Positions 30,424 through 30,487 of a stretch of 64,000 nt of DNA are shown one piece after another. The DNA lies in the NCBI GenBank assembly GCA_000165345.1, contig CM000432.1, positions 832,001 to 896,000 of the forward strand, given 5' to 3'. Positions within the stretch are counted from its first letter, which is position 1, and each line of letters starts with the position of its first letter. The position numbers were made by a program, and so were the translations under genes. The notes beneath the pieces were generated by a model. That model ran no database searches, had not been told where the DNA came from, and was given only the letters and a program-made list of their open reading frames with translations.

Positions 30424-30487
30424 CTAAAAATAAAGAATAGTTAAATATTATTCATAAGAATTTTATTGATTTAAAAATTAAACTTAC

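Follow-up and report, generated by a model that had tools for sequence, protein, structure and literature searches.

The kinase-like gene P1, on the reverse strand of a 64,000-nucleotide (nt) stretch of Cryptosporidium parvum chromosome 4 (the whole of which we call the window), contains a genuine U2-type spliceosomal intron of 64 nt. The window has a GC content of about 30% and is made up of long, unbroken reading frames. The gene corresponds to the cgd4_3570 locus (CPATCC_001680) and is a member of the Cryptosporidium-specific 'HCD' kinase-like family, with P2, P3 and P4 as its paralogs in the window. Splicing from AAG/GTAAGT to TTTTTAG/TA joins the 181-nt exon 2 to the 2.6-kb exon encoding the body of P1, and gives this body, which lacks an ATG, an N-terminal extension. 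We are highly confident of an explanation in which this intron (intron 2) is genuine and in which the acceptor of exon 2, at the boundary between P2 and P1, probably has two alternative 5' splice sites. The intron is already present in public gene models. Its independent recovery agrees with the correction that curators had made to the 2004 model, and shows that the first reading of the splice signals was sound.

The preliminary description of this DNA had proposed a phase-1 GTAAGT...TTTTTAG intron at 30487..30424 on the reverse strand, and both its coordinates and its sequence were confirmed. The donor (AAG/GTAAGT) occupies positions 30490..30482, with its G at 30487, and the acceptor TTTTTAG (TTTATTTTTAG) ends at 30424. 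The 3' end of the intron, TTAACTATTCTTTATTTTTAG, includes a TTAAC whose branch-like A, a motif match only, lies 17-18 nt from the end. The site thus shows what is expected of a U2-type GT-AG intron: a 5' site near AG/GTAAGT, a T-rich tract followed by YAG, and a branch-like YTRAY. The donor falls at the end of a 60-amino acid (aa) open reading frame (ORF; 30471..30653, reverse strand) with its ATG at 30653, and the 166 nt from this ATG to the donor give phase 1. At the junction, G (30488) and TA (30423-30422) form GTA (Val), followed by AAT and then by TTG. The TTG, given in the preliminary description as the track start of the body, opens the 859-codon ORF 27839..30418, and the restoration of the frame through a Val codon recurs as the same junction in deposited proteins.

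The GTAAGT motif alone is no evidence, since it occurs in the window at chance level (28 observed vs. 24 +/- 5 expected) and is not enriched. Support for the intron comes instead from the restored frame, the exact match to deposited proteins and the conservation of position and phase across the genus. In an exact look-up among C. parvum deposits, the 927-aa product of three exons assembled from the window matched QOY42079.1 (CPATCC_001680), WKS77382.1 and KAL5369079.1 residue for residue; the deposited name is 'Protein kinase-like domain containing protein (HCD gene family)'. The extra N-terminal exon claimed for P1 is therefore part of a deposited spliced product, and is conserved across the genus. 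The G/TA Val junction (..KIQEK-V-NLREK..) is identical in models deposited for C. parvum, C. hominis, C. meleagridis and C. tyzzeri, and the source annotation paper reports 100% support of its introns by RNA sequencing (RNA-seq; PMC8744675). The joined product first described, which is 97% identical to C. hominis CHM_4g3570, differs from CPATCC_001680 in that it begins at Met-12 (MKNN) and omits an 18-nt first exon.

The body itself also calls for upstream sequence. Its first 89 codons are open and devoid of in-frame ATG, and they hold a CSSLSELFEC motif, both Cys of which are invariant in every family member. Family-invariant residues in this region include body G56, Y62, C69 and C78. Because such residues precede the first in-frame Met of the body, an upstream start is required, and the old 2004 C. 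parvum Iowa II model (EAK87767 / XP_625933; 770 aa), which starts at this first internal Met (MEDETIF...), is excluded. That model persists in NCBI and UniRef and has been superseded by later annotations.

Table 1. Features of the P1/P2 region and neighbouring paralogs (window coordinates)
Feature	Position	Strand	Remarks
P1 exon 3, kinase-like body including stop codon	27839..30423	-	
Intron 2, 64 nt, phase 1, GTAAGT...TTAAC (branch-like)...TTTATTTTTAG	30424..30487	-	12% GC vs. 26% in upstream exon
Exon 2, 181 nt, KLPSRMKNNLKE...KIQEK plus first base of Val codon	30488..30668	-	MKNN ATG at 30653..30651
[KR]LPSR motif, conserved, in exon 2	30654..30665	-	
Intron 1 as annotated, 105 nt, phase 0, CAG/GTAAGA...TTATAG	30669..30773	-	
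Db, annotated intron 1 donor, GTAAGA	30768..30773	-	hexamer invariant in 11 species
Predicted hairpin, UUUAC.UGGGA-loop-UCUCA.GUAAG	30769..30796	-	pairs Db donor with upstream U1-like YUUAC
Exon 1, annotated coding part, 18 nt, ATGGGATTTATTTCTCAG = MGFISQ	30774..30791	-	in-frame ATG only in the C. parvum clade
Da, GTACGT hexamer, P2 Val-Arg codons, 9 nt before P2 stop	30817..30822	-	phase-0 donor-like site
Da-acceptor fusion junction, ..ACAGCAATT / AAGCTACCAAG..			
P2, cgd4_3580 by position, 888 aa, HCD-family paralog	30811..33477	-	directly upstream of P1, same strand; hydrophobic N-terminus MKLSQLVFLLLGIFLEFV
P3, paralog	34273..37053	+	
P4, paralog	37376..40354	-	

We compared the orthologous loci of ten further species or lineages with the C. 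parvum structure. A phase-1 GTAAGT intron occupies the homologous place in 10 of 12 species or lineages, the deep-branching C. muris and C. serpentis included (Table 2). Its length ranges from 48 to 118 nt, free of any multiple-of-3 constraint; exon 2 spans 178-214 nt and is always 1 mod 3 (10/10 intron-bearing species), and intron GC is below exon GC. C. parvum and chipmunk genotype I are separated in exon 2 by a clean 33-nt insertion. In C. felis and in a relative of C. bovis (L004; Logan SRR26126307), intron 2 is precisely absent and the ORF is continuous and in frame, a pattern that is the signature of precise intron loss. A second round of protein searches with an ortholog profile added no species.

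Table 2. Lengths of intron 2 and exon 2 in the ten intron-bearing species or lineages
Species or lineage	Intron 2 (nt)	Exon 2 (nt)
C. parvum	64	181
C. hominis	64	181
chipmunk genotype I	58	214
C. canis	70	199
C. ubiquitum	91	196
SRR31860986 species	111	193
C. bovis	118	178
C. ryanae	48	178
C. muris	59	187
C. serpentis	62	187

The frame of exon 2 is open from its first base in 11/11 species, and the other two frames contain 2-12 stops in the eight species tabulated. The first Met of the exon comes at codon 26 in the SRR31860986 species, 47 in C. bovis, 48 in C. ryanae and 42 in both C. muris and C. serpentis, and within the first 6 codons in five species. Shuffling gave probabilities of 0.31, 0.025, 0.16 and 0.017 for open pre-Met stretches of this kind in four lineages. 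In the SRR31860986 species, C. bovis and C. ryanae, the [KR]LPSR motif comes before the first Met, and the L004 species, which lacks the intron, has the motif too. The codons of the motif vary at synonymous third positions only (CTA CCA AGT AGA, CTC CCA AGT AGA, CTC CCG AGC AGG). A related motif, [TAG]LPSR[KV], occurs at P2 residues 55-59 (about 33301..33315, reverse strand), some 35 residues past the P2 signal peptide, where it is kept in five P2 orthologs beside a conserved RGRMLSRGRR. The LPSR motif common to P1 and P2 may serve in processing or sorting of both proteins, or may have been left over from an N-terminus that they once had in common.

A side observation concerns C. muris and C. 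serpentis, in which a 400-nt first intron and the second intron (L009 4240..4638, L013 4267..4674) are 95% identical between the two species, vs. 83-90% for the flanking exons, where change is mostly non-synonymous. This contrast would point either to a fast-evolving linker or to introns that carry function.

The possibility of a further exon upstream, raised in the preliminary description, was borne out. The models with the ..KIQEK-V-NLREK.. junction deposited for C. parvum, C. hominis, C. meleagridis and C. tyzzeri also carry the 18-nt MGFISQ exon, separated by the 105-nt intron 1 from exon 2, which is preceded by a phase-0 acceptor at 30669/30668; the MKNN Met is residue 12 of deposited P1. 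This MKNN ATG has an A at -3, and the MGFISQ ATG a T. An in-frame ATG in exon 1 is restricted to the same four species. The corresponding codon is GTG in chipmunk genotype I, C. ubiquitum, C. canis and the SRR31860986 species; an out-of-frame ATG lies 17 nt before Db, the annotated donor, in C. felis and 16 nt before it in C. bovis; and the frame entering Db is devoid of ATG in C. ryanae, C. muris and C. serpentis. We considered an in-frame ATG further upstream, inside P2 (in the MGFISQ frame), and rejected it: in the nine species lacking the ATG, this frame is closed 5-30 codons upstream of Db.

P2 ends with the codons GTA CGT AAA TAA; the stop (TAA, 30813..30811) is 19 nt upstream of the annotated P1 ATG. 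The GTA CGT pair forms the donor-like hexamer Da, which, spliced to the acceptor at 30669/30668, places P2 and P1 in one frame (1806 aa in C. parvum). Comparison of the homologous sites in the window and ten other loci (L001-L003, L005, L006, L009-L013) showed the Da hexamer to be GTACGT in ten species and GTAAGT in C. bovis (Arg to Ser, CGT to AGT), the latter being a consensus donor. The P2 tail preceding Da is gapped and variable. As a codon control, we examined the 13 Val columns that are invariant across the 11 P2 orthologs; only the GTA of Da is a single codon in all. None of the 17 invariant Arg columns is single-codon in all 11 species, CGT accounting for 8-11% of Arg codons, and only 4 of 808 adjacent P2 codon pairs have the same hexamer in 10 or more of the 11 species. 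In C. ryanae the P2 stop is nine codons away and GTACGT is still kept. Both Da and the exon-2 acceptor are in phase 0 in 11/11 species, even though the distance from the acceptor to the LPSR downstream of it is variable (1, 2 or 12 codons). The two properties to be expected of a second donor, conservation beyond coding needs and a frame compatible with the shared acceptor, were thus found in all 11 species. Db, like Da, shows no change across 11 species. It is found past the P2 stop, 13-98 nt further downstream than Da. Readthrough of the P2 stop into P1 after Db splicing was checked by hand and rejected, as the frames do not match.

Fused P2-P1 models have been deposited for C. muris RN66 (CMU_018720), C. 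serpentis (ACR3K2_22990), C. ryanae (FG386_003290), C. canis (OJ252_123), C. ubiquitum (cubi_01518) and two C. hominis isolates (ChUKH1_11010 and ChTU502y2012_408g0170). These share with C. parvum the same tandem paralogs, the homologous phase-1 GTAAGT intron and, except in C. ubiquitum, the same exon-2 acceptor. They differ in that the GTACGT donor skips the P2 stop and the MGFISQ exon, so that P1 becomes the C-terminal half of an approximately 1800-aa protein with a signal peptide. The acceptor of cubi_01518 (CATTGTAG / AAACTACCAAGCAGAATG; L011 4274 vs. 4346) lies 72 nt past the site that corresponds to the C. parvum acceptor and is in frame with that site; the model thereby omits 24 in-frame codons, including KLPSRM. 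We also observed that the deposited C. bovis P2 model (P0023, L005 781..) begins MILEWGVDGLKV, without the hydrophobic N-terminus of other P2 orthologs, and is probably truncated at its 5' end.

These observations lead us to the following view of the locus. In the RNA-seq-based deposited C. parvum model, Db is joined to the exon-2 acceptor, which yields the 927-aa protein without a signal peptide; P1 would then be transcribed from within or through P2, because the P2 stop is only 19 nt upstream of its ATG. The exon-2 acceptor probably serves both Da and Db. Use of Db would give P2 alone, plus the 927-aa P1 where the transcript starts internally, while use of Da would give a P2-P1 tandem protein carrying the P2 signal peptide. 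The existence of a functional Da isoform, compatible with the annotated one, is suggested by the conservation of the site, and we give it less than an even chance. Taken further, P2 (cgd4_3580) and P1 (cgd4_3570) may form one alternatively spliced unit conserved across the genus, with P1 entering the secretory pathway, a proposal that we consider on balance doubtful. In such a unit, the weak donor GTACGT before the P2 stop would compete with the strong GTAAGA after it, and a hairpin would mask the strong donor in most species; donor choice would then produce either a one-module secreted kinase-like protein or the two-module P2-P1 fusion. Several points weigh against the explanation as we have given it. 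In the curated C. parvum model P2 and P1 stand as two genes, which lends no support to the use of Da, and the fused gene models may be purely ab initio. The RNA support for intron 2 is second-hand, coming from the general statement of the annotation paper and the identity of the deposited product, and the kinase-likeness of P1 rests on motifs and one profile comparison only.

Three other readings have to be set beside this explanation. A gene without any intron, in which P1 would start at the first in-frame ATG of the body and the 60-aa ORF would be a chance occurrence, could appeal to the survival of the 770-aa model in NCBI and UniRef and to the unremarkable frequency of GTAAGT in the window. 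We consider it extremely improbable, given the family-invariant residues in the 89 open codons before that Met, the conservation of exon 2 and the intron in position and phase, the precise loss in two species, and the replacement of the model in later annotations. A more serious reading is that P2 and P1 are separate cistrons on a dicistronic or read-through transcript, or that P1 has an internal transcript of its own; P1 would then be cytosolic and non-secreted, and Da would be conserved for a reason other than splicing. We would put this just short of an even chance. P1 could be translated alone from the MGFISQ ATG, as in the deposited curated model, or from the MKNN ATG, whose A at -3 is the better context, and five species have a Met in the first 6 codons of exon 2. 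Furthermore, the gap from the P2 stop to the P1 ATG is only 19 nt, no P1 ortholog model has a hydrophobic N-terminus, and about 200 polycistronic transcripts, some with internal monocistrons, have been reported in C. parvum (PMC11761812). The P1 and P2 gene identifiers are absent from the main text of that study (Xiao et al. 2025, PMC11761812), which reports 201 polycistrons. What separate cistrons leave unexplained is the nucleotide-level invariance of GTACGT, the phase-0 acceptor followed by a frame that is open before its first Met (C. bovis, C. ryanae, C. muris, C. serpentis and the SRR31860986 species), and the disulfide-like conservation of Cys.

In the third reading, P1 would not be a protein in its own right (ancestrally at least, and in most species), and Da splicing would make a secreted protein with two kinase-like modules, alongside which the Db isoform may coexist. 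P1 would 'lack' a signal peptide since that of P2 serves, and the codon control does single out the Da hexamer. Da and the acceptor are in phase 0 in 11/11 species, exon 2 is open from its first base with no Met for 25-47 codons in five species, and [KR]LPSR precedes the first Met in three species with synonymous differences only. The confinement of the in-frame exon-1 ATG to the parvum clade, the 10/11 invariant P1 Cys (8 of them common to all signal-peptide paralogs) and the fused models deposited for six species point in the same direction. However, Db is equally invariant and closer to the AG/GTAAG consensus than Da, and the fused models may be ab initio predictions. The C. muris vs. C. 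serpentis comparison also fails to help: exon 2 differs at 8, 10 and 8 sites in the three codon positions (18 nonsynonymous and 5 synonymous codons), and because a third-position bias is absent, purifying selection on the exon 2 linker is not shown. We regard this reading as a real possibility with rather less than an even chance. Exact searches of metagenome contigs for the Da-acceptor junction and for the exon 2-exon 3 junction gave no match, and a look-up of P2 in Logan/NCBI returned genomic contigs only.

Returning to the proposal of competing donors, the RNA around Db is predicted to fold. In RNAfold predictions, the GUAAG of Db is paired with an upstream YUUAC in 9/9 species with long Da-Db spacing. 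In the hairpin alignment, pairing holds in 98% of cells without any compensatory change, and variation among the close species is confined to three columns, all of them at unpaired positions. The MGFISQ ATG of the parvum clade sits in the hairpin bulge, at the position where four other species carry GTG. As a separate observation, the 49-nt Da-Db segment (30774..30822, reverse strand) shows 80-96% identity between C. parvum and its relatives, vs. 48-92% for the flanking coding sequence; the sole exception is the P2 tail compared with chipmunk genotype I, which is marginally higher (92% vs. 90%).

Intron 1 has some peculiarities of its own. Its identity exceeds that of exon 2 when C. parvum is compared with chipmunk genotype I (87% vs. 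81%) or with C. ubiquitum (80% vs. 69%). It contains a perfect 7-bp inverted repeat, CTTAGAG-N8-CTCTAAG (spacer AATTAAAA), at 30723..30744 on the reverse strand, and C. canis has a different one, TGTCTT..AAGACA, at about the same place. A small nucleolar RNA encoded in this unusually conserved intron was rejected by eye, as C/D boxes are absent, and an Rfam scan of 30300..30950 returned two far-sub-threshold microRNA-like hits only, which we treat as chance.

The preliminary description had P1 alone lacking a signal peptide, and hydropathy is consistent with this. The maximal 12-residue Kyte-Doolittle value in the first 80 residues or so is 0.27 for P1 vs. 2.72, 3.14 and 1.92 for P2, P3 and P4, respectively. 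The P1 value is the same under either annotated start, and thus also with the MGFISQ exon added; by this measure P1 has no hydrophobic h-region within its first 30-40 residues, approximately, and a hydrophobic N-terminus is absent from all P1 ortholog models. P1 may thus be a non-secreted member of the family. At the same time, 10 of its 11 Cys are invariant in 11 orthologs and 8 are common to all signal-peptide-bearing paralogs, a degree of conservation that would be expected of a protein folded in the secretory pathway. The non-secreted status of P1 is therefore tentative, because its Cys are conserved and because the in-frame Da could supply the signal peptide of P2.

The 'kinase-like' label for P1 appears reasonable, if weakly tested. 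The motifs GKYGSV, LAIKS, WERE, HCDLNFGNI and IID occur in order in the body, and residues G126-V131, K191, E208, H345/C346/D347, N352 and D396 (body numbering) are invariant in 12 sequences. An hhalign comparison of the family profile with PKA and CDK2 sequences gave a probability of 86.6%, over the region from hinge to catalytic loop only. A Pfam scan of P1-P4 yielded no kinase domain and only sub-threshold, irrelevant hits, and a profile of P1 orthologs had 0 hits at E<=10 against PDB sequences. AlphaFold2, run on the 12-sequence alignment, gave a mean predicted local distance difference test score (pLDDT) of 55, and a Foldseek/PDB search with this unusable model gave no match below E=0.08. 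We found no literature on cgd4_3560-3610, the cpbgf/CPATCC identifiers, CMU_018720 or the 'HCD gene family', nor any data on where the proteins of these genes localise, and kinome papers mention HCD for DYRKs only.

Two minor observations concern P1 itself. Residues QSQNQNQNQNNYN (window about 28935..28970, reverse strand) form a short QN repeat, QNQNQNQN in C. parvum vs. QNQNQN in C. hominis, and the P1 model of C. parvum assembly GCA_035232765.1 (WRK31947.1; 733 aa) is truncated and marked 'partial'.

Public Cryptosporidium annotations disagree on P2 and P1, about half splitting and half fusing them. The disagreement is not trivial, because it involves an invariant in-frame donor, a lineage-specific start codon and a 19-nt spacer. 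If the fusion isoform is real, the predicted localisation of P1 would change and the 'signal-peptide-less' P1 would enter the secretory pathway. The count and architecture of the Cryptosporidium-specific secreted kinase-like family would change with it, as would the reading of some 'dicistronic' C. parvum transcripts, and this isoform would be absent from the current reference annotations of C. parvum, C. hominis, C. tyzzeri and C. meleagridis. Such an isoform would, moreover, provide one of the rare documented instances in which a very intron-poor genome makes regulated use of alternative 5' splice sites.

The arrangement of P1-P4 recalls secreted kinases and pseudokinases of other apicomplexan parasites. 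The ROPK proteins of Toxoplasma and the FIKK proteins of Plasmodium are lineage-specific, tandemly arrayed and kinase-like, mostly with N-terminal signal peptides. P1-P4 resemble them as a lineage-specific tandem array of kinase-like proteins of which most bear signal peptides, but show no detectable sequence membership in either family, and have an HCD catalytic loop, long inserts and a C-terminal half (about 400 aa) that is entirely helical. At the level of RNA, tau exon 10 and SMN2 exon 7 (terminal stem-loop 2, TSL2) provide examples of 5' splice sites regulated by local hairpins. The predicted Db hairpin is similar in that a donor GUAAG is paired with an upstream U1-like YUUAC beside an alternative donor. 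It differs in being a prediction only, with no compensatory substitutions, and in being absent from C. muris and C. serpentis, whose two donors are separated by 13 nt. Lastly, P2 and P1 are like the polycistrons described in C. parvum (PMC11761812) in being same-strand neighbours with almost no spacer and possibly with internal monocistronic transcripts. The difference from these polycistrons is that splicing can connect the P2 and P1 ORFs in one frame and would thereby turn them into a single cistron.
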